Origin: a virus
Taxonomy: Duplodnaviria > Heunggongvirae > Uroviricota > Caudoviricetes
Direction: 5' to 3' (one strand)
Length of the DNA stretch: 17,248 nt
IMG/VR virus record: IMGVR_UViG_2571042870_000012
The position numbers were made by a program, and so were the translations under genes. This document shows positions 1 to 17,248 of the stretch, piece after piece (positions within the stretch are counted from its first letter, which is position 1; each line of letters begins with the position of its first letter). The notes beneath the pieces were generated by a model. That model saw nothing but the letters and a program-made list of their open reading frames with translations, did not search any database and was not told the DNA's origin.

Positions 1-237
1 CACGTCATAGACGGTTTTACCCCGATGATCTTCAACGAGATGCCACGATGCCTCATCACTGTTGAAAACAGCCACGAAGCCAGCCGGAATATCTGGCGGT
101 GCAATATAGGAACTGTTTGCTGGCAGACCTGTATGAGGCGGAATATATGCGTCACCTTCACCAATAAATTCATTAGTTCCGGCCAGCAGATTATAAATTT
201 TTATGGTCCGTGGTTGTTCACTCATTCTGAATGCCAT
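1..237 (-). CDS. Tail fibre assembly protein (Tfa), N-terminal 79 codons; the gene continues past the window start
   Basis: Minus-strand translation from ATG at 235-237 reads [42 protein letters not shown]..., matching the N-terminus of E. coli prophage Tfa proteins as I recall them. The ATG overlaps the upstream stop (TAATG). Absent from the ORF track because it runs off the edge. Confidence 0.8.
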
Positions 238-533
238 TATGCAAGCCTCACAATGTAGTTAAATGCGATGTTTTTGACGGTGTTTTCCGCGTTACCAGCA
301 GCGTTAACGGTGATGGTGTGTCCATGTGAGCCAATCGCAACAGAGTGCGTATGAGCACCAATACCGACAGTATGTGCGTGAGCACCTGCAGATGCAGCTG
401 TGCCGCTGACACTATGAGTGTGCGCTCCTGCAGCACTTGTATTCACACTGGCCGCAGACACTACCTTATGTACTGACCCATTTTGTGACCACTGGCTGAT
501 TGCTGATGCGCCTGTGACACTATGAGTATGGTT
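237..533 (-). pseudogene. 3' remnant of a side tail fibre gene (C-terminal tip region only, no N-terminal domain)
   Basis: The frame is open from the in-frame stop at 534-536 down to the TAA at 237-239 and has no ATG at its 5' end (the track start is GTG). Translation carries repeated His-x-His motifs ([33 protein letters not shown]) typical of tail-fibre tips, and it lies directly upstream of tfa. Confidence 0.65.
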
Positions 534-632
534 TCAGGTGAATGATATTTCCATACGCTGTTGGATATCCGTTGTTATACACCTCGTATAACTCAAGACC
601 TGCTGCCCCCTGCGTATTGTCTGTCAGCGCGG

Positions 633-1400
633 CTAACGCCCGCCAAACATGGCAAACAGATCATTAATACCGTTTGCACGCGCTTTTTGCTCTGCCAGTA
701 CCTGCGCACGGATACTGTTTTCATCCACCACGGGTGCTGCTGCCTGCACTGGCGTCCGGGAGGCTGCAGGTTCATCATCCTGTACGCGTGGAGCACTGTT
801 GCGTGGCGGAGTAATCATGTTTCGAATGGATTCCGGCATCTTTTTAAATTCCTCTGTACGTTTTGACTGAATACATGCCATTGCCTTAACGGCTGGTGTC
901 ACCTGATCAGCAAATCCCTGTGCCAGACATTCGGCACCGGACATCCAGGTCTCATCCGCCAGCATGGCAGCAATTTCATCGGTGGTTTTCCCGGTTTTCT
1001 GTGCATAAGCGGGTAACAGAACCGCCTCAACTTTATCGAGCAGGTCGGCATAGGTGCGCATGTCCTCCGCATCACCGCCCGTAAATCCAAATGGTTTATG
1101 AATCATCATGAAGGAGTTTTCCGGCATAATGACCGGGTTTCCCACCATCGCAATGACCGACGCCATTGACGCCGCCACACCGTCGACATAAACGGTAATG
1201 GACGCACCATGTGTTTTCAGTGCATTAAAAATGGCGATGCCTTCAAAGACATCGCCACCCGGTGAATTAATATGGAGATTAATGTGGGTGATATCGCCCA
1301 GTGCATTCAGATCACTGATAAACTGCTTCGCCGTAACACCCCAGAAACCAATCTCGTCATAAATATAAATATCCGCGTCACTCTGGTGACCTGCCTGCAT
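633..1400 (-). CDS. Prohead (head maturation) protease, ClpP/S49-like, lambda gpC equivalent
   Basis: Translation contains [11 protein letters not shown]...[18 protein letters not shown]...[17 protein letters not shown], a ClpP-family fold signature, immediately downstream of portal. Start taken at ATG 1398-1400 ([16 protein letters not shown]), 13 nt after the portal stop; its ribosome-binding site is weak, so the start is uncertain. The track ORF (to 1661) overlaps portal. Confidence 0.75.
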
Positions 1401-1413
1401 CCTGAACCAGGAA

Positions 1414-2922
1414 TTATTCTTCGGACTGGTCGTCGGTGTGCTGCGGCTCCTGTCGTTTCGTTGCGGCACTGCTGCCTCCTTTATCACTGGCCGGATCGGT
1501 ATCAAATACCAGATCCAGCTTGCGGTTTTCATCAATTTCGGCCTTGCGCCGACGTTTGACATCATCCGGATTACGACCACCTGCACGTACCCAGTCTGAT
1601 TCTGTCGCCGCTCCACCACGAATCTGAATTTTCCAGGCCTCAGCCTCCTTAACAGGGTCAATCCACGGCATCACCGGTCCGGAATACACCGCGGTATACA
1701 GTGAAGATCGGTCCAGACCGCGGGGTAGCCTGATAACACCGGATGCCACAGCCTGTTTCAGCCAGGCACGGTACATCGGGCGGGTGACGGCACCAATAAA
1801 CCAGTCCTGCAGGATCAGGTAGCCATCAGTAGACTCAACCAGTTCCTGACGCTGGGCGCTGTAAGTGCCGTTATAGTTGCGTGCCGTACTGGAAAAACTC
1901 AGACGACTGCCCGCCGCCACGGCACGCAACTGACCATTACGAAAAGTTTCAAGGTTAGGATTGGGACGATCCGACTTCACCATTCCGATTTCTTCGCCGG
2001 GTTTCAGATCGTCGTAAATAATGCCTGGCTGAATGGTAAGCTCGCGTTCATTCTCCTTGCTGCCATTACCATCCGATTCATAGCTTTGCCCGTCGCCTTT
2101 CCGGATGTACATCCCCAGAGCAGCGGCGATCCTTGCTGCAGTCAGCTCAGAATCTTCATACTCTTTCAGGGCACTGAGGCGGATCAGCACACCGGACAAC
2201 AAAGACGTCCCGCGCATCTGGTGCAGACGGCGAACAAATTTAAGATGCAGCATTCGCTCTGCATCCACTTCTTTGGTTTCCATCTGCCGTCCGGATACAG
2301 GACGACTTTTATACACCAGATATTTTTCGGGACGCCCCCAGTCATCAACAAACACGCCCTGATTCAGCCTGTTGCTCTCATCACTGGTCATGGGAATAAA
2401 GTCTGGCTCGAGCGCCTCCAGCCAGAAATGAACACCGGCAGAAGGCGTCAGGCTGTTTATGCGCCCGGAAACCATCTGGGCAAACACCTCACCATCGCGC
2501 AGCCAGGTACGCAGCATCAGACGTTCCAGCATCGGACGGGTAAACTGCCCGGTGACTTCCGGACTGACAGACCATTCACTCCATCGGGTGCGTATCTCCG
2601 CTGCCAGATCACGGGCAATGGCCCCATTGCGTAATACCGGATGTGGCTCGACAATAATCCCGTTTTTCCCCACCACCCGTTCTTCCAGCTTGTCAAATAC
2701 ACCAATGACCAGATCGTGGTTGTTATCAAGGTAACGGGCCTGCTCACGTAACGACACGGCCCCGTACTGGCTTAACTGGTCGGCAGTTCGGTTCTCCCGT
2801 CGGGCTTTGTGTGTCCGCGTCGTTTTTACGGCCTCATAAGCCTGGATCACCGCACGGGAACGCAGCCTTGCCGCTTTCCATCCTGGTGAAAAAACGCCAA
2901 TCACATCATCAAGAATTGCCAT
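1414..2922 (-). CDS. Portal protein (lambda gpB-like)
   Basis: About 500 aa ORF between gpW and the protease with an acidic C-terminal tail (HTDDQSEE). Start taken at ATG 2920-2922, overlapping the gpW stop as TGATG (translational coupling); the track ORF extends to 2994. Confidence 0.8.
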   Translation of the reverse strand: MAILDDVIGVFSPGWKAARLRSRAVIQAYEAVKTTRTHKARRENRTADQLSQYGAVSLREQARYLDNNHDLVIGVFDKLEERVVGKNGIIVEPHPVLRNGAIARDLAAEIRTRWSEWSVSPEVTGQFTRPMLERLMLRTWLRDGEVFAQMVSGRINSLTPSAGVHFWLEALEPDFIPMTSDESNRLNQGVFVDDWGRPEKYLVYKSRPVSGRQMETKEVDAERMLHLKFVRRLHQMRGTSLLSGVLIRLSALKEYEDSELTAARIAAALGMYIRKGDGQSYESDGNGSKENERELTIQPGIIYDDLKPGEEIGMVKSDRPNPNLETFRNGQLRAVAAGSRLSFSSTARNYNGTYSAQRQELVESTDGYLILQDWFIGAVTRPMYRAWLKQAVASGVIRLPRGLDRSSLYTAVYSGPVMPWIDPVKEAEAWKIQIRGGAATESDWVRAGGRNPDDVKRRRKAEIDENRKLDLVFDTDPASDKGGSSAATKRQEPQHTDDQSEE

Positions 2923-3134
2923 CAGAACCTCGCCAGCCGGTACCCGGGATGCCCCCGTCGTCGTGTAATCAGAGCCGCAAGGCGGCGCTCCCACTCCTGC
3001 CGCCCCTGCCGGATCTCAGATAAGTTTTCCATGGTCATCTGCTGACCATTAAAAGTGACGGATTTTCCGTCCAGCACCGCCATTTCAGCTTCCGTATAAC
3101 GCTGAATCATGGCTTCGATATCATTCTGGTTCAT
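2922..3134 (-). CDS. gpW-like head-tail joining (head completion) protein
   Basis: About 70 aa protein ending ...RRLAALITRRRGHPGYRLARF, resembling the lambda W C-terminus as recalled (...QRRRGPAGFYV). GGAGG lies 6 nt upstream of ATG 3132-3134, which overlaps the terminase stop as ATGA. Confidence 0.65.
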   Translation of the reverse strand: MNQNDIEAMIQRYTEAEMAVLDGKSVTFNGQQMTMENLSEIRQGRQEWERRLAALITRRRGHPGYRLARF

Positions 3135-5230
3135 AACCATCCTCCGGAAGTCAGCCAGGGGTTAACATCGTCAGTTACTGTTTTCTTCCGTTTTTGTTTT
3201 TTAACAGGCGTGGATACCGGTTCCGGTGAGGATGACGGTTCGGTACTGTCCTGGACACACTCCAGCCAGGTTTCCCGGCTCGCCCACTCCGGTGCATCCG
3301 GCCAGCGGATCTTTTCGTATCCATGCAGAATGACCAGAGCCTCGGCATACACCATCAGGTCAAAAGCTTCGTTGGCACCGCGACCCGGCTTACTCCATTT
3401 CCCGTCACGGCTCCGCTCTTCATACGTCAGTTCGTCGTAAAACCAGCTCCCCAGCCAGTCAGGGAAATGCACATAGCCTGGACCTGGCGAGTCACGCCAT
3501 AACGCGTTATTCACCCGGTCTTTCAGGGCATCCGTCTGAAGAAGCCAGAGCGGCACATCACCTGCGGCCTGCGCCCGGCGGCCCGTTCGTCCGGTGTTAT
3601 CAGGGAATGTACGGCTGATCAGTTTTGCGCGCCGGATGCTGTCACCCTTAAACAGGTAAATACGTTTACCAAGGCCATCACGACGGCAACGACGCCAGAA
3701 TTTATAGGCATTATCAGTGACCCCGTCTTCACCGCCGGAGTCCACCGCCATTGCCATCAGTCGCATTTGTTGAGAAGGATCGGAGGCCAGCGGCCAGCTT
3801 TTATGAAAAACATCCGTCAGCAGGACATCCCAGTCTTCCGGATAGCTGGCCGGATCAATTCGCTGGCTCTCCCCGTCGCAGTCACTGCGCAATGACTGCG
3901 TGATGTTGTAACGATCAATAATCCAGCGTTCGCCACGACTGCCATAGCCCGTTACCTGAACCACAAAACGGCGATGACGTCCCGCCTGCACATCCACTGT
4001 CGCCACAAGGAAATTAATGCCATCCGGCACACTGCGGGAAGGAACTGGCTCTGCCCGCTGCTCAAGCAGTTCACTTTTTCGTTGCTCCATGCTGGCACGA
4101 GGAAGATAAGGCAATCCCCAGTCGGTGTTGATAACCGCCCTGAGTGTTTCTTCGCTTCCTGTCGCTTCATACTCCTGTTCTGCAGTCAGTAATTTGTAAA
4201 CCAGTTGCGCCCAGGTCTGATACGCAGCAGCTGGCCCTTCCATCCAGAAACTGGCGATACGGGAGCGGCGCGGTTCACCGGAAACGTTGCCGTTACGATC
4301 AATGACCTGACCTTCACGCAACCAGACTCCAGCACTATTGAGCTCACGCTTTTTCTCCGCAGTGATAATGCCGCTGCAGTGCGGGCAAAGTAGATACGCC
4401 GCCTCACTGGCTTTAAAGGGATCCGGTTCATTACGGTAGCCGGTCATGGCATCCATGGCTGGCTGAAAATATTCACCGCAGTGCGGACATGACCAGTACC
4501 AGCGGCGGCGGTCACCACGATTGTAAAGGGAAAGAATACCAGTCGTCGGTGGCGCTTCATGAGGCGACTTACGTCGCCATTTGCTGTCGCAGATGTCACG
4601 TCCCGGCGAGCTCTCCACCAGAGTCATCCCGGCGGACATAAATGTGGTGGTACGTTTTGAGGCCAGGGAGAAACCATCACCCTCGCTGTCGATATTCTCC
4701 GGAAAACGGTCGTAATCGGTTAAGGCGACAAACCGGTAATCCGACGACGACATAATGTTGACCGAGGGCCAACCAATTTTAAGGAACGAGCCATCCCTGA
4801 ACGTCTTATCATGGACATTATTGTCGTTACGACGTGGACTCATTCTTTTCTTTACCGCCGCACTGCTTCTGAACGTTCTGTCGAGGCGCTTTTTAGAATG
4901 CTCGCGGGCCTTATCTTCGGTCATCTGCACAACGAGCATGTCCGAAGGATCGCAAACGATGGTATAGACAATCCATCCATCGATCAGACCAATGGTCTTC
5001 CCTGTTCGCGCAGGACCAATAAAAATCACCGCATCGTATTCACGCGATGCCAGGCAGTTCATGGGCTCAATGATGTAGGGTGTCAGTTCAGGATCCCATG
5101 GCACCGAGTTACCAGCCCCCTTGGGAACACGCATGAATTTTTTAACAGCCTCCGAAATCGGCATGCGACGTGGTGGGGAAAATCCTGCCGATATGTCCCT
5201 TCCCAAATTTCGGGCTGATGAAAAACCCAT
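3131..5230 (-). CDS. Terminase large subunit (lambda gpA-like)
   Basis: 699 aa ORF with a GPARTGKT Walker A-like motif and Cys/His clusters (CPHCGEYF...CPHCSG) analogous to lambda gpA. AGGAGG sits just upstream of ATG 5228-5230, overlapping the Nu1 stop. Confidence 0.85.
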   Translation of the reverse strand: MGFSSARNLGRDISAGFSPPRRMPISEAVKKFMRVPKGAGNSVPWDPELTPYIIEPMNCLASREYDAVIFIGPARTGKTIGLIDGWIVYTIVCDPSDMLVVQMTEDKAREHSKKRLDRTFRSSAAVKKRMSPRRNDNNVHDKTFRDGSFLKIGWPSVNIMSSSDYRFVALTDYDRFPENIDSEGDGFSLASKRTTTFMSAGMTLVESSPGRDICDSKWRRKSPHEAPPTTGILSLYNRGDRRRWYWSCPHCGEYFQPAMDAMTGYRNEPDPFKASEAAYLLCPHCSGIITAEKKRELNSAGVWLREGQVIDRNGNVSGEPRRSRIASFWMEGPAAAYQTWAQLVYKLLTAEQEYEATGSEETLRAVINTDWGLPYLPRASMEQRKSELLEQRAEPVPSRSVPDGINFLVATVDVQAGRHRRFVVQVTGYGSRGERWIIDRYNITQSLRSDCDGESQRIDPASYPEDWDVLLTDVFHKSWPLASDPSQQMRLMAMAVDSGGEDGVTDNAYKFWRRCRRDGLGKRIYLFKGDSIRRAKLISRTFPDNTGRTGRRAQAAGDVPLWLLQTDALKDRVNNALWRDSPGPGYVHFPDWLGSWFYDELTYEERSRDGKWSKPGRGANEAFDLMVYAEALVILHGYEKIRWPDAPEWASRETWLECVQDSTEPSSSPEPVSTPVKKQKRKKTVTDDVNPWLTSGGWL

Positions 5231-5238
5231 TATTCCTC

Positions 5239-5766
5239 CTAGAGACTCTCTCCTTCCTCATCAGGAATTAATTCAGCAGCACAAGCCTCGTAGGATTTTT
5301 CCTGAAGAGTGTATCGCAGGTCATCAATTGCCTGCTGTACAACGCCGACGGCCTGAGGAGTCAGGGCGCAATCGCGTTCAAGAACATCCGGAATTGTCTC
5401 CAGAACCTGGACGACAGCCTTTCTCATGGACGAATAGACGATGACTACTTCATCAACGGGGATGAGTTTTCGCTGCTCCTTTTCCAGCTTGATCCTTTCA
5501 TTTTCAGACTGGTACCAGTCCTTTCTCTCTTTCGGCTCCATACGGGATGGATCATGAACAGAGTCTGCTGCCTCATGCTTCACACTAAACAGGGCTGGCC
5601 CGACATGCTGCAGGGCGTAAACGGGGTTCCCCCTGACAGTCGCAGCCACAGGAGTGTTGGCCGCGAGAAGCCGTTTTTTTACTGTGTCCCGGTGAAGCCC
5701 AAAGGCCTCAGCGATTTTAAAAACACTCCAGTAATAAGCATCACCGATCCCGCTCACATTTGACAT
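5239..5766 (-). CDS. Terminase small subunit (Nu1 / NohA-like DNA packaging protein)
   Basis: Translation MSNVSGIGDAYYWSVFKIAEAFGLHRDTVKKRL... matches the Nu1-homolog (NohA) family of E. coli prophages as recalled. Start at ATG 5764-5766 with GGAG 6 nt upstream; the track start at 5796 is probably too far upstream. Confidence 0.8.
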   Translation of the reverse strand: MSNVSGIGDAYYWSVFKIAEAFGLHRDTVKKRLLAANTPVAATVRGNPVYALQHVGPALFSVKHEAADSVHDPSRMEPKERKDWYQSENERIKLEKEQRKLIPVDEVVIVYSSMRKAVVQVLETIPDVLERDCALTPQAVGVVQQAIDDLRYTLQEKSYEACAAELIPDEEGESL

Positions 5767-5899: not shown

Positions 5900-5990
5900 C
5901 CAAACATGCTGCCGCCGCCATGGAAATGCAAAAACTAGCCTTTTTCCGCGACGCTCCCGCCCCGTGGCAGGGGCCCCCACCGGGAGGACC
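5900..5990 (-). other. cos-like site (candidate cosN plus flanking cosB) upstream of Nu1
   Basis: Minus strand reads ACGGGGCGGGAGCGTCGCGGAAAAAGG about 195 nt upstream of the Nu1 start. Lambda has ACGGGGCGGCGACCTCGCGGGTTTTCGC at the same relative position (cosN GGGCGGCGACCT), from memory. Confidence 0.4.
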
Positions 5991-8039: not shown

Positions 8040-8246
8040 CTTCATTTTCACTTTTTTAAATCCAACGACAGACGGCTGGCATTTAAGTATTGTGAAATAT
8101 TATCAAATGTAATCATCATTGATTTACAAAAGATACATTTTGCCCCGAAAGGATTCATGTCAGAAACATCAAAAGATGATGTTCTATACTGGGAACCATG
8201 ACAACACGGGCATCTAAAGTGAATATGGTTTGTAATATTGTCTACC

Positions 8247-8459
8247 TCAAAGCGCCACTACATGAACAGCGGCAGGACCTTTAGGTCCGTTCTCAATACC
8301 AAATTCAACTTCCTGATTCTCAGTTAATGTTTTGAAATCGTTGCTCTGAATTGCTGAGAAATGGACAAACACATCTTTGCTGCCATCTTTCGGCGTGATG
8401 AAACCAAAACCTTTTTCAGGGTTAAACCATTTCACTAAACCAGTCATTTTGTTAGACAT
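8247..8459 (-). CDS. cspI: Cold shock protein CspI
   Basis: 70 aa CspA-family protein [45 protein letters not shown]... with RNP1/RNP2 motifs and a long AT-rich 5' leader. Confidence 0.85.
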
Positions 8460-8822
8460 AATTATTACCTTTTGAAGAAATTAGCCCTTGGGCAGAATGG
8501 TCCGAAAAAAAATATCAGAGAGAAAAACCAACAAGGAAATCTCAAGAGGTACAAATAATAAAATTATAACAATGACTGCTTCAGATAAATTTGTAACAAA
8601 CCAGAACACCATTAACGCATGATTAACCACCCATAGCAAGGATTACTTTTGTAAAGAAAAACACAGCAATGAAAGAATAGCTTTATTTATTAATAATAAC
8701 GTGTCATTCTGATTAAGACCTTTTATCTTACCCTTAAGATTTCAGGAATTTTGGCTCATGGAAGAGTCCTTTTTATTTAAATTTTACATTCCGCGATGTA
8801 AATGTTCCGATTTAATATTACC

Positions 8823-9846
<1,024 letters not shown>

Positions 9847-9850
<4 letters not shown>

Positions 9851-10134
9851 ATATATTTATGATGAGGACGCTCGTGCTTATTGGCAGGATTTTCAATCTT
9901 AAAGGAGTACTGATGCTGCAGATAAGACTCAACTTTTTCTGACAATTTTTCTGCTACTTCCAGGAAGACTTGCCGGACGCTCCTTCTGGCTGCTGCCTCA
10001 TAAAACTCCAGCGCAGCTCCTTCAACACGGTCCATGGCGACATCCAGGTCAAAAATTTCACCGTCAAAGCGTTCTTTGTCCTGTAAGGCTACAGTTACCG
10101 TAACTTTATTCTCAAAATTACGGACTCCTTTCAC
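9847..10134 (-). CDS. ydfR: YdfR-like hypothetical protein between holin and endolysin
   Basis: 95-codon soluble ORF at the position YdfR occupies in K-12 Qin; the track start is GTG and the true start is uncertain. Confidence 0.55.
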
Positions 10135-10162
10135 AACCAGTTCATAGTCTTGAGTCGTTGGA

Positions 10163-10378
10163 TTACTCTCCTCTCGCAGCCTTACGCCTGTCTTCTTTAA
10201 TCTTGAAATAAAGATTTGTCAGATACGTCAGCAGGCCAAAAACCAGGCTACCCAGCACACCGATTGCAGCCCACTGTGACGGAGTTACTTTATCGAGTAA
10301 CTGCAATGCCCAGAAACCAGCATTACCCGCCGATGTGCCATAGGCAACACCTGTTGTTAACTTATCCATTGATTTCAT
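10163..10378 (-). CDS. essQ: Class II holin, phage 21 S-type (pinholin) with dual-start motif
   Basis: Translation [71 protein letters not shown] (71 aa) matches S21 as recalled, with Met1 and Met4 both present. The track ORF (to 10453) over-extends upstream. Confidence 0.8.
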
Positions 10379-10853: not shown

Positions 10854-11131
10854 ATTGTGGTGCTTTTTGTGGGAGTCATCCACTTACGCACTTTGTTTTG
10901 CCATGCCAGCAGTTAGCTTCTGCTGTAAAACTATTCATGCAGCAAACCTGCACTTCACCACAATGGTTAGCATACTTTTCCTGATTAAGATTTTGCCAAA
11001 TATGCTGGCCATTGTTTCATGTATTGGACCTCCTTAATTTTTATTAAAGAAATCCAATATTCACTACTCTGTCCGTATCTCTACTCAGGCATCAGCCTTC
11101 TTCGTTATCGTATACAGACGAGCGATGAATT

Positions 11132-11347
11132 TTAATCAGTAATGATGACATTTGCTGCTGCAGGACCTTTAGCACCACTCTCTATAGAGAAGGTAACCTT
11201 TTGACCTTCAAATAAGGTTCGATAATTATCATTCTGAATCGCAGAAAAATGCACAAACACATCTTTACTACCATCAACAGGAGAAATAAAGCCGAAACCT
11301 TTATCAGCGTTAAACCATTTTACTAAACCAGTCATTTTATTTGACAT
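11132..11347 (-). CDS. cspB: Cold shock protein CspB
   Basis: 71 aa CspA-family protein [53 protein letters not shown]...; ATG at 11345-11347. Confidence 0.85.
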
Positions 11348-11647
11348 TCTACATTCCTTAACTTGAGCCTTTCGGCATAAATGGTTTGCATAACAGAAAC
11401 GACTTCGTACTTAATTGGAGAGACTCAAAGAAGGAATAAGTGAATAACACCTGAAATGAGAACTGCTTTAGTAAACTACTTCGTATATCGTCTGTTCTTC
11501 AAACCGACGCAATCATTAACGCATAGTTGAACATATGAAGCAATGTTTATTTTAGACATCCAGCCATCTTCAACCCCATCAAAAAACTATAGCTTTCTTC
11601 AGGAACGTGTGTATAGTGCGCCAAGTTATCAGTATTAAGGAATTTTT

Positions 11648-14835: not shown

Positions 14836-14991
14836 TTACTCCTCAGGTTCGTAGACTGTGAAGACAGCGACCTCCGTCTGGCCGGTTCGGATTCGTACCT
14901 CGCAGAGGTCTTTCCTCGTTACCAGTGCCGTCACTATGACGGTTAAACAGATGACGATCAGGGCGATTAACATCGCCTTTTGCTGCTTCAT
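14836..14991 (-). CDS. hokD: Hok-family type I toxin (51 aa)
   Basis: Translation MKQQKAMLIALIVICLTVIVTALVTRKDLCEVRIRTGQTEVAVFTVYEPEE; AAGGAG 9 nt upstream of ATG 14989-14991. A GC hairpin (14807-14828) follows the stop. The track ORF extends in frame to an ATG at 15048. Confidence 0.85.
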   Translation of the reverse strand: MKQQKAMLIALIVICLTVIVTALVTRKDLCEVRIRTGQTEVAVFTVYEPEE

Positions 14992-15577
14992 AGCCTGCTT
15001 CTCCTTGCCTTTTGGCACGTAAGAGGCTAACCTAGATTTGCCGTTCATAGATTGAGCCTCAGATTAATGTTAAGCGTCTTGCAGGACGCGTAATGTTAAC
15101 TGGGGCTTTTCTCTATCTGCCTTTGGTGTTCATGCCTGAGACAGATAGCCTCAAGCACCCGCAGCCATTCTACTTAACTCCCGTCACCTGGCCAATATAA
15201 AATCAATCAGAAAGGCGATCCATAAGAACAACAGCAAGACAATAAATTGCCATTACAGCTGCAATAGCCAGCGCACATTTGAGAACCAGCACGACAACCT
15301 CCTGTATTGGACGTACACCAGTCCTGATAAATATGAGGCTCTCTCATCATTGATGAGATACAACTATTGGGTATAGTTTCTGTGATTTTGTTCTGTAGAA
15401 ATGGAACACAACAACCAGTAACCACCAGCGATTCTTTAAATACGCCAAATCCGACGCAAGCTAACCTTCTAGTCCGCTTTGGGCGAAGACCGGACGTTCG
15501 ATAGGTGTGAACTAGTAACTTTAAAAACATTTAATTACCAGTAAAAAAACAAGAATATACTATCACTTTTCCAATTT

Positions 15578-16603
15578 TTAATTACCCTTATCAATTTTAA
15601 GAAATACATTTCCAATCTCATCAGAATAATCCTGTATTATTTTTGAAATGACGGCATGATCAATGGTTGGTTTTAAGAATAAAAGTGTCACAGTAATCTG
15701 CATCAAACTAATAGCAGTAGCATGGGCTGGATCAGCCATTCCTGAATCACTTTGCCCGACCAATAATATATCATCACCAGTTTCACAGAGACCAAGCCTA
15801 TTTCTCATTGCCTTGGAACCGGTGTGTACATTCTGACTCGCCCACTTATAATAAGGGCGCATGTGTTCTAACTGAACATCTTTCTCAATAGCTCCAAACC
15901 CCACTTTATTATGGTTAGGGAAAATATAAGATGCCCACCCATAATTATCTGCATATTTTTTGCCGTATTTTTTTATTAATAGATCAAATTGAACTTTACA
16001 CTCAGCTATTTCTTCAATAGTTGGACCTTTTGCTTCTAACCGGTGCTCGTACTTTTTGTGTTCCAACATTCCAGTATATGAATCAACCACTTCATGGTAG
16101 TAAAAGCGCTCAGCACACTCTTTTCCATGCTTTGCTATAAACATAGCTGTGGCTGCTACCTCATGAAGTGCTCGCCATCTCGCTTGGGCAGCATCTGCAA
16201 ATCCATTCTTTAAGAGACACAAAATTTCGTTGGCGATGTGGCAAGCTCTTGCGTGATGCCGAACGACTAAATCAAAAACCACATCCTCTTCAGAGGCAGC
16301 TTGTGGTCTATAAGAACGATTGAACTCTTCACCGGACTCCGTGCATATCACTATAAGTGTTTCGAGCAAATCAAAAGCCTCTGCCCATCTTGAAATATTT
16401 CTCTCAACAAATTCATCACAAAGAGAACGATGTTCTCTAAGCATTGCATTGGCCGAGCCAATAAGAGATTTTTTAACGACAATGGCTATTTTGGGAATTA
16501 GGTTATTAATTTCTTTTTCGATATCAGCGTCACCAGATAAATCAAGTCTCTCTTTTAAAAGGCTGTCTATGTGCTCAAGCAAAATATTATGAAAAGTATC
16601 CAT
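15578..16603 (-). CDS. Hypothetical protein, AT-rich orphan cargo gene (341 aa from ATG; 345 from an upstream TTG)
   Basis: Long uninterrupted ORF with K/E/I/N-rich, low-GC codon usage unlike the flanking genes. No transmembrane segment or motif I can assign with confidence. Flanked by AT-rich non-coding DNA. Confidence 0.7.
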   Translation of the reverse strand: MDTFHNILLEHIDSLLKERLDLSGDADIEKEINNLIPKIAIVVKKSLIGSANAMLREHRSLCDEFVERNISRWAEAFDLLETLIVICTESGEEFNRSYRPQAASEEDVVFDLVVRHHARACHIANEILCLLKNGFADAAQARWRALHEVAATAMFIAKHGKECAERFYYHEVVDSYTGMLEHKKYEHRLEAKGPTIEEIAECKVQFDLLIKKYGKKYADNYGWASYIFPNHNKVGFGAIEKDVQLEHMRPYYKWASQNVHTGSKAMRNRLGLCETGDDILLVGQSDSGMADPAHATAISLMQITVTLLFLKPTIDHAVISKIIQDYSDEIGNVFLKIDKGN

Positions 16604-16830: not shown

Positions 16831-17248
16831 CTAGTAACGTCTAAAATACCTAACATTTCCCTGATAAAATGCCATAATGCGCTGCATAACTTCGCTCTTC
16901 CGGCACTCGCGACAGATTATGTTTAGACAACTATCGTAGCGACGTATTTCTCCGTCAGGTAATGACCAGATAAGGTCCGGATCAACCGCAGATGGTTTTT
17001 TCAGCTTTGCCCTTGAGAGCTTTTTACGGGCATTTTGCCAGTCCTTACGCGCCTGTTCAGACGGGAATAACCCGTAACCAGAGTTGTATACATCGCCACT
17101 GGCAACCAGCTCTCTGGCCAGAACGCTCATCAGATATCTTGTTGCCCCAGTTTTAGTTTCCAGTTGTCGTAACGTCTCGCGCCCACTCTGGCGTACGAGT
17201 TCAACAACCTGCCTGGATTTGCCCCTATATTTCCAGACATCTGTTATC
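16831..17248 (-). CDS. Ren-like protein (partial; frame stays open to the window edge)
   Basis: C-terminus ...CLNIICRECRKSEVMQRIMAFYQGNVRYFRRY and internal ...TGAT... resemble lambda Ren as recalled (...FKECRQSAAMKRVLAVYGVKR; ...LTGATV...). The frame has no stop upstream within the window, so the true start is at or beyond 17248. Confidence 0.4.
   Translation of the reverse strand, partial: ITDVWKYRGKSRQVVELVRQSGRETLRQLETKTGATRYLMSVLARELVASGDVYNSGYGLFPSEQARKDWQNARKKLSRAKLKKPSAVDPDLIWSLPDGEIRRYDSCLNIICRECRKSEVMQRIMAFYQGNVRYFRRY

Follow-up and report, generated by a model that had tools for sequence, protein, structure and literature searches.

What brought a ClpP-like protease gene up against the 3' end of a tail fibre gene (stf) in a lambdoid prophage whose terminase and portal genes are still in place? 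The question is raised by a 17,248-nt stretch of viral DNA (IMG/VR record IMGVR_UViG_2571042870_000012), which at its full length we call the window, and in particular by its positions 534 to 640. A first-pass annotation made from the letters alone had seen there one deletion scar, in which a whole protease gene, a gap of about 95 bp and a 3' tail fibre fragment follow each other. Alignment with the intact prophage of Escherichia coli EC43 bears out that a deletion scar joins the head module to the tail fibre fragment; it resolves the scar, however, into two junctions, one between head and tail genes at 634-635 (junction A) and one internal to stf at 532-536 (junction B). We conclude, with a probability of about 0.93, that the region holds a compound deletion scar, left in a Qin-type lambdoid prophage which is in decay at the ydfJ'/rspB locus of the APEC O78 lineage.

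The prophage and its locus

The window is identical, with 0 mismatches over 17,248 nt, to the reverse complement of part of the chromosome of E. coli DSM 103263 (NZ_CP192200.1), a strain from a chicken in Berlin, and equals positions 20001-37248 of our locus L001 from that strain. Loci L001 and L006 together (58 kb) cover the whole DSM 103263 prophage from ydfJ' to rspB; further loci include L002 (APEC O78), L003 (the intact EC43 prophage) and L005 (K-12), and all counts in complete genomes refer to 5,426 of these. According to the annotation of NZ_CP192200.1, the host element is a lambdoid prophage bordered by a truncated ydfJ on one side and rspB on the other, with its integrase at the rspB end, and the cryptic prophage Qin of K-12 occupies the same ydfJ'/rspB locus. 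The two also have the Qin signature genes in common: dicB, ydfA/B/C, hokD/sok, cspB/F/I, ydfT(Q), ydfU, rrrQ/rzpQ, gnsB, tfaQ and pinQ, the last of which lies 1.5 kb from the scar region.

Junction A removed the capsid domain and the tail genes

Breakpoints were located by blastn against L003 and then by base-level alignment. At the same locus, the intact EC43 prophage reads tfaQ, a 1008-aa stf, lom, J, I, K, L, M, tape measure, T, G, major tail, U, a Z-like gene, a 276-bp gene, DUF2190, a gene for a 675-aa protease/major capsid fusion, portal, terL and terS. Window positions 1-535 correspond to L003 2797-3331 (99.8% identity), 532-635 to L003 3837-3940 (100%), and the window from 621/634 onwards to L003 from 20001/20014 onwards (99.2%). 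Chance does not account for the scar: its two flanks follow a single intact prophage from this locus colinearly, at 99-100% identity, and the interval between them is absent.

At junction A, stf runs to position 635 (...GCGCGGCTA) and the protease/capsid gene starts at 634 (TAACGCCCG...), so that the two overlap by TA; the 15-nt overlap reported by blastn is an imperfect patch (CTGTCAGCGCGGCTA versus CTG-CAGCGTCTGATA). Missing is L003 3941-20015, or 16,075 bp, which takes in 14 complete genes, from lom to DUF2190, along with codons 1-706 of stf and codons 279-675 of the fusion gene, and codon 278 of the fusion gene is joined to stf codon 707/708. A contiguous 121-mer for this junction occurs in exactly 12 of the complete genomes, always at 100% identity, and the junction is present in four viral or metagenome contigs as well.

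The ClpP-like open reading frame (ORF) had been read as a whole protease gene with its stop at 633. A TAG at 633-635 does end it, but this is not the natural end of the gene, since this codon reads TAT in the intact fusion gene, and stf supplies the C at 633 as its first base at the join. Pfam, tblastn and the EC43 alignment all make the ORF codons 1-278 of the 675-aa fusion. Pfam finds CLP_protease only (aa 31-191 of 278) in the window ORF (636-1469), and Phage_capsid_4 in addition (aa 377-672) in the full-length EC43 protein; what was deleted is the end of a scaffold-like linker together with the capsid domain, while the protease domain was kept. Members of the protease/capsid fusion family carry CLP_protease and an HK97-fold capsid domain in one polypeptide, which the window ORF does not. 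It is a fragment of a member, the 5' 41% of the gene, and not itself a member. The gap of about 95 bp is no spacer either, as window 532-635 is 100% identical to the interior of stf; the 97 bp at 536-632 are codons 708-739 of that gene.

Junction B is a later deletion within stf

At junction B, window position 535 equals L003 3331 and position 536 equals L003 3841, with TTTC shared, and 509 bp of stf (codons 740-910) are absent. The tail fibre frame had been described as open from a stop at 534-536 and as running into tfa. A TGA does stand there, and the frame is open from 240 to 533 (98 aa, with Phage_fibre repeats by Pfam) and ends in a TAA that overlaps the tfaQ ATG (235-237) as TAATG at 235-239; the TGA itself, however, was made by the second deletion, codon 910 of intact stf being GGA. 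Because 509 is not a multiple of three, the two remaining pieces of stf are out of frame with each other.

Junction B was found in one of the complete genomes, that of DSM 103263, which is the sole single-piece match, and is absent from all other loci fetched. APEC O78 and 10 other complete genomes have junction A and retain the 509 bp. Because these 11 genomes keep the 509 bp, deletion B is later than A, and its distribution points to a recent event private to DSM 103263.

Each junction has the form of a microhomology-mediated deletion, with a short identity at both breakpoints (TA at A, TTTC at B) of which one copy is kept, as the check for microhomology called for by the first-pass annotation brought out. 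The history of the scar has two steps. In the first, a 16,075-bp deletion at the shared TA fused protease codon 278 to stf codon 707/708, taking out the capsid domain, DUF2190, the 276-bp gene, the Z-, U- and V-like genes, G, T, the tape measure, M, L, K, I, J and lom. In the second, seen in one genome only, an out-of-frame 509-bp deletion at TTTC followed. Both would be illegitimate joins of the RecA-independent type at very short homologies. The resulting map of the scar and its surroundings is as follows.

1-237, minus strand: 5' 237 nt of tfaQ; the window opens within the gene (RefSeq coding sequence L001 19662..20237, which is window -338..237)
237-533, minus strand: stf remnant piece 2, codons 911-1008 and stop, in the native frame (tblastn aa 911-1008, 100%)
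532-535, no strand: junction B, microhomology TTTC, 509-bp deletion (comparison with APEC O78 and EC43)
536-633, minus strand: stf remnant piece 1, codons 708-739, out of frame with piece 2 (tblastn stf aa 707-741)
634-635, no strand: junction A, shared TA, 16,075-bp deletion (three-way alignment)
636-1469, minus strand: truncated ClpP-like protease/major capsid fusion, codons 1-278 of 675 (tblastn aa 1-278, 98.9%)
1414-2922, minus strand: portal, full length, 502 aa (annotation; tblastn 502/502 aa, 99.8% to EC43)
2922-3134, minus strand: 70-aa ORF between terL and portal, with the position and size of lambda gpW (70/70 aa, 100%)
3131-5230, minus strand: terL, full length, 699 aa (699/699 aa, 99.9%)
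5239-5766, minus strand: DUF1441 terS, full length, 175 aa (175/175 aa, 100%)
5946-5966, minus strand: cos-like site CACGGGGCGGGAGCGTCGCGG, by resemblance to the lambda cosN region

In the order of minus-strand transcription these are the cos-like site, terS, terL, the 70-aa ORF, portal, the ClpP-like ORF, the tail fibre sequence and tfaQ. TfaQ matches its EC43 counterpart over 191/191 aa at 99.5% identity (tblastn). RefSeq already labels both fragments in the window as pseudogenes, the protease as "missing C-terminus" and stf as "missing N-terminus"; the practical value of the present map lies in its two junctions, its junction-made stops and its truncated protease-capsid fusion.

What was lost and what remains

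Could the missing genes lie elsewhere in the prophage, in an order unlike that of lambda? When 21 EC43 morphogenesis proteins were compared by tblastn with the entire prophage (L001 and L006), the only matches were TfaQ, Stf aa 707-741 and 911-1008, protease/capsid aa 1-278, portal, the 70-aa ORF, TerL and TerS. In the same search lom, J, I, K, L, M, H, T, G, V, U and Z were absent from the whole prophage, and so were the product of the 276-bp gene, DUF2190 and the capsid domain. The first-pass annotation was right that the prophage lacks major capsid, decoration and connector genes and all those of the tail shaft, and none has been moved to another place in the 58 kb. Its statement that terminase and portal remain holds as well: terS, terL, portal and the gpW-sized ORF have kept their whole length, at 99.8-100% identity. 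The cos-like site that it reported is present about 180 nt upstream of the DUF1441 terS gene, its likeness being to ACGGGGCGGCGACCTCGCGG, the lambda sequence around cosN.

The two deletions would thus leave a prophage with int, xis, the early genes, Q, the lysis genes, the cos-like site, terS, terL, portal and a stand-alone protease domain. Without capsid and tail genes it should be unable to make virions by itself, a deduction from its gene content that we regard as sound. Integrase and excisionase are annotated as intact beyond the window (L006 11143-12709), unlike intQ of K-12, which is a pseudogene, and this defective prophage may still excise. At the other end of the window, about 17214-17248, lies a terminal repeat of insertion sequence (IS) IS2 (TGGATTTGCCCCTATATTTCCAGACATCTGTTATC...), and the element extends in L001 over 37225-38453, where it interrupts DUF977 and the replication-gene region; this is a second, independent inactivating event.

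The stf end of junction A recurs at one TA

Is the position of junction A peculiar to these strains? K-12 answers this in part, for L005 7840-7841 equals window 634-635, and it is at that TA that stf homology ends and nohD/terL homology begins. A search of IMG/VR and JGI/ENA metagenome contigs with the 22-mer whose last letters are the stf TA gave 180 contigs with readable right flanks, 150 of which continue as intact stf while 30 switch to other sequence directly after the TA. The 30 breaking contigs lead to 16 different partner positions. Among these are the protease codon-278 site (the window type), portal, the tape measure gene (H), L, a hairpin between V and G, and I, together with positions in lambda-type A (aa 81), B, E (aa 62 and aa 296) and Z, and two in nohD; 3 of the 16 have no gene assignment. 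All partners that could be aligned to an intact reference are colinear with it, so these scars are nested deletions extending towards the head genes. Contig L197, recovered when scanning from the other side, carries a deletion that runs in the opposite direction from the same TA.

A second scan did not pre-select endpoints but used a 20-mer lying 53 nt upstream of the TA: the break falls on the TA in 14 contigs, 1 nt away from it in one, and elsewhere within the next 120 nt in three. TA stands at the crossover in 11 of the 12 mapped intact partner sites, and the partners resemble the hot spot more than do 1,277 other TA dinucleotides of these regions (Mann-Whitney p=0.001); in 4 of the 16, ACCG follows the TA directly (TAACCG). 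The hot spot itself reads ...CAGCGCGG(C/T)TA up to the break and CCCGACC after it, a short dyad of the form CGGnTAnCCG, and scars occur on both its C and its T allele. Of the complete genomes, 372 have the K-12 type of junction, 12 the window type and 4-5 the lambda-A type; the portal and V types, of which complete genomes have none, come only from IMG/VR or metagenome contigs. Taken together, these comparisons indicate that the first step was not placed at random and that its stf end is a nucleotide-exact hot spot, apparently used for at least 16 different deletions.

Other breaks accompany the main one. A minor recurrent stf breakpoint, again just after a TA, lies at about 590-598 of the window (CGTATA before the break, A after it), with the main TA 44 nt to its right; two viral contigs (L117 and L119) use it with different right-hand partners. 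Four of the TA-anchored scars from IMG/VR (L045, L060, L068 and L197) carry further internal deletions in the head region that was kept, such as the tape measure/portal/terL joins of L045, which shows stepwise erosion after the first event. Strain KV7 was considered as a further user of the hot spot, but its junction has no TA and lies in a different stf allele, with other breakpoints; we set it aside as an unrelated deletion at the same locus. A limited literature search found no description of an stf deletion hot spot, and an earlier one may exist.

What may fix the endpoint

A major question that follows is what holds one end of so many deletions at a single dinucleotide. We consider a specific break or strand exchange at the TA the most likely cause: a sequence- or structure-specific event at the stf TA would be followed by joining at a TA-containing look-alike site. 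A more far-reaching version, which we put forward tentatively and hold to be somewhat less probable than its opposite, is that the stf TA is the target of an undescribed site-specific breakage or strand-exchange activity, with a core of 2 bp (TA) and a loose preference for partners that look like it, one that has repeatedly stripped lambdoid prophages of their capsid and tail genes.

Several known agents were compared with the site. After an IS or transposon adjacent deletion, the element or a terminal repeat is kept at the fixed end, and none was seen there: the 12 partners aligned colinearly with prophage or lambda morphogenesis DNA (their flanks were not screened against IS sequences), the ORFs beside seven junctions read by eye as phage genes, and L003 1000-4300, that is within 3 kb, contains no inverted copy of the fixed end that could serve as a transposon terminus. 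Half-sites of the Din-family crossover type (26 bp, TTCTCCCAAACC-NN-GGTTTGGGAGAA) are lacking too: against the e14 pix consensus the stf site scores 3/24 and the protease partner 6/24, where the maximum in the prophage is 15/24 and e14 pix reaches 20-21/24. Likeness to lambda cosN, REP/RAYT, the IS5/IS630 target and BstEII-type sites, judged by eye, was rejected, none of these cutting at TA in both alleles. Placement of the TA in a hairpin loop was rejected as well, the DNA folds of 12 sites being inconsistent and only the V-G partner lying clearly in a terminator-like loop.

A relaxase nick of the MOBF type (R388 TrwC) would call for an IR2 hairpin and a TATTGTCT U-turn with the cut 3' of GTCT, and this combination is not present. 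The R388 oriT is nicked by TrwC after GGTGCGTATTGTCT and before ATAGCC (PMC4176350). The 12 nt directly before that nick, TGCGTATTGTCT, do occur at window 611-622 (plus strand), at a distance of 12-13 nt to junction A; inspection by eye shows no partner arm for IR2, and the predicted nick, between 622 and 623, is 12-13 nt off the junction. The identity with the R388 nic region near the hot spot is probably a coincidence.

The scar as such is a genuine case of a well-known kind, ordinary decay in a well-known cryptic prophage, and taken alone it would be of low interest. The recurrent TA endpoint raises that interest. If it is real, "grounding" of prophages at this locus would not be random erosion but would be channelled by a DNA site, with virion genes lost and stf'-tfa-pin kept in every case, and the position of the textbook nohA-stfQ junction of K-12 would be explained. 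If the site-specific activity proposed above is true, prophages would be domesticated by a directed route that spares the receptor-binding end of stf, tfa and pin, and the Stf C-terminal/Tfa cassette, which recent work has linked to the blocking of phage adsorption, might be preserved by it.

Alternative explanations

The simplest alternative keeps an intact stand-alone protease up to 633, a non-coding spacer of 95 bp and a single junction at about 534-640. It fits the ORF boundaries when these are read mechanically, but it is almost certainly wrong given that the intact 675-aa fusion has TAT at 633-635, that window 536-635 is stf coding DNA at 100% identity and that two separate junctions were mapped. 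Could one or both junctions instead be assembly artefacts, for instance collapsed repetitive tail fibre sequence? The 3' region of stf does have repeats of the GAHTHS type, and junction B is known from one complete genome and from none of the other loci fetched. For junction A such an origin is ruled out by 12 genomes, assembled independently, and four metagenome or viral contigs in all of which it is identical; junction B rests on one assembly, but NZ_CP192200.1 is a finished chromosome and the sequences joined are non-repeated and share TTTC only, unlike a repeat collapse, so that on the whole we think an artefact quite unlikely. Still less probable is that we are looking at a functional reduced entity, either a capsid-forming satellite or a domesticated packaging module, in place of a decaying prophage. 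Such an entity would be in keeping with the open frames of terS, terL, portal and the protease domain, which are almost the same as in viable phages, and with the presence of a cos-like site, int and xis. Against this, the capsid domain was deleted from within its gene, the flanks are 99-100% colinear with a complete prophage at the same locus, and IS2 also interrupts the replication region; the 12 genomes are identical in sequence, and intact ORFs may just reflect a recent event. The prophage has neither its own capsid set without tail genes nor the conserved, self-contained architecture of phage satellites such as capsid-forming phage-inducible chromosomal islands.

Two further explanations concern the endpoint. 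The serine invertase PinQ might have made deletion A by recombining a crossover site in stf with a quasi-site: a 2-bp core, as serine recombinases require, is shared in 11 of 12 partners, pinQ is 1.5 kb away, and Cin is known to recombine at quasi-sites. A pin gene is also present in 10 of 12 scar contigs versus 34 of 69 intact contigs, but this association is confounded by prophage age and locus. The scores of 3/24 and 6/24 against e14 pix are background, there being no pix-like site anywhere in the prophage, and no partner among those aligned is inverted, though invertases favour inversion. PinQ has been shown to work on the standard e14 pix repeats (PMC12529663), and on balance we find its involvement improbable. 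Did the remnant rather arise once, through one ancient deletion that fixed stf', its partners being swapped later with incoming phages? Qin is old and vertically inherited, lambdoid prophages recombine freely, and the stf'-tfaQ-pinQ block is common to K-12, APEC O78 and many other strains. Homologous exchange, however, should not be able to create a non-homologous partner exactly at an old junction, and the 16 partner positions are nested across two unrelated head modules, the lambda type and the mEp460 type; that scars occur on C and T alleles and that the L197 deletion runs the other way likewise make common descent unlikely.

A compound deletion scar with a recurrent endpoint is therefore the reading we prefer, and several points weigh against it. 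We identified no recombinase, transposase or nuclease that explains the fixed TA endpoint, and none of the 180 contigs has an inserted element at the TA. The perfect microhomology at junction A is only 2 bp, and by a geometric calculation random joining would give an ambiguity of at least 2 bp in about 16% of cases and one of 4 bp or more in about 1.6%; because an overlap of 2 bp is so common by chance, junction A alone is no proof of mechanism. Junction B depends on a single assembly. The EC43 comparator is a contemporary relative and not the actual ancestor, and the hot-spot counts are counts of contigs, which are not phylogenetically independent, so that only distinct partner positions measure independence.

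Other features of the window

Two full-length cspA-type thermoregulator leaders (RF01766; 113 and 159 bits) lie at 8220-8605 and 11116-11508 on the minus strand, upstream of cspI and cspB. The hokD toxin gene and a full-length sok antitoxin RNA (RF01794, 109 bits) lie at 14836-15160 on the minus strand. K-12 has a relBE-ydfV-flxA block after hokD; the window lacks it and has a DUF5677 gene (15578-16603) in that neighbourhood. In the lysis cassette, ydfR (L001 29847-30378, window 9847-10378) is annotated with 333 bp and overlaps essD, whereas in EC43 and K-12 it has 312 bp and is separate, a difference in length that points to a small indel or an alternative start.

Comparison with known phages and prophages

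Phage 21 had been suggested as the intact relative, but the head module of the window is neither of the phage 21 nor of the lambda type: a DUF1441 terS with a protease-capsid fusion places it with mEp460, cdtI and phi458. The fusion protein is 98.5-99.1% identical to those of phi458, Tritos, mEp460 and cdtI, and these phages and the intact EC43 prophage, which has 99-100% nucleotide identity on both sides of the scar, share the same head module, the 675-aa fusion and a lambda-like order of tail genes. All of them keep the 16 kb of capsid, connector, tail and fibre genes that the window is without.

Qin of K-12 sits at the locus of the window prophage; the two agree in their early, lysis and cold-shock genes and share the stf'-tfaQ-pinQ-ydfK-ynfT block. 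In K-12, however, a Nu1-type small terminase gene (nohA) is joined directly to stf', whereas the window has DUF1441 terS, terL, portal and the protease fragment in front of it; the 509-bp deletion is absent from Qin, and intQ is a pseudogene there while int and xis are intact in the window prophage. The nohA/stfQ junction of K-12 nevertheless uses an stf-side TA identical to that of junction A. In the DLP12 (nohD-aaaD'-tfaD), e14 and Rac remnants, internal deletions have also fused packaging-gene fragments to tail fibre or tfa fragments, at other loci and with other breakpoints than in the window.

Series of deletions anchored at one site are familiar from lambda, where Int promotes deletions ending at att, and from Cin, which recombines at quasi-sites. 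The fixed site in stf differs from these in being neither an att nor a Din-family crossover site and in sharing a core of only 2 bp with its partners; the likeness lies in an endpoint fixed to the nucleotide, variable partners of limited resemblance and a short core.

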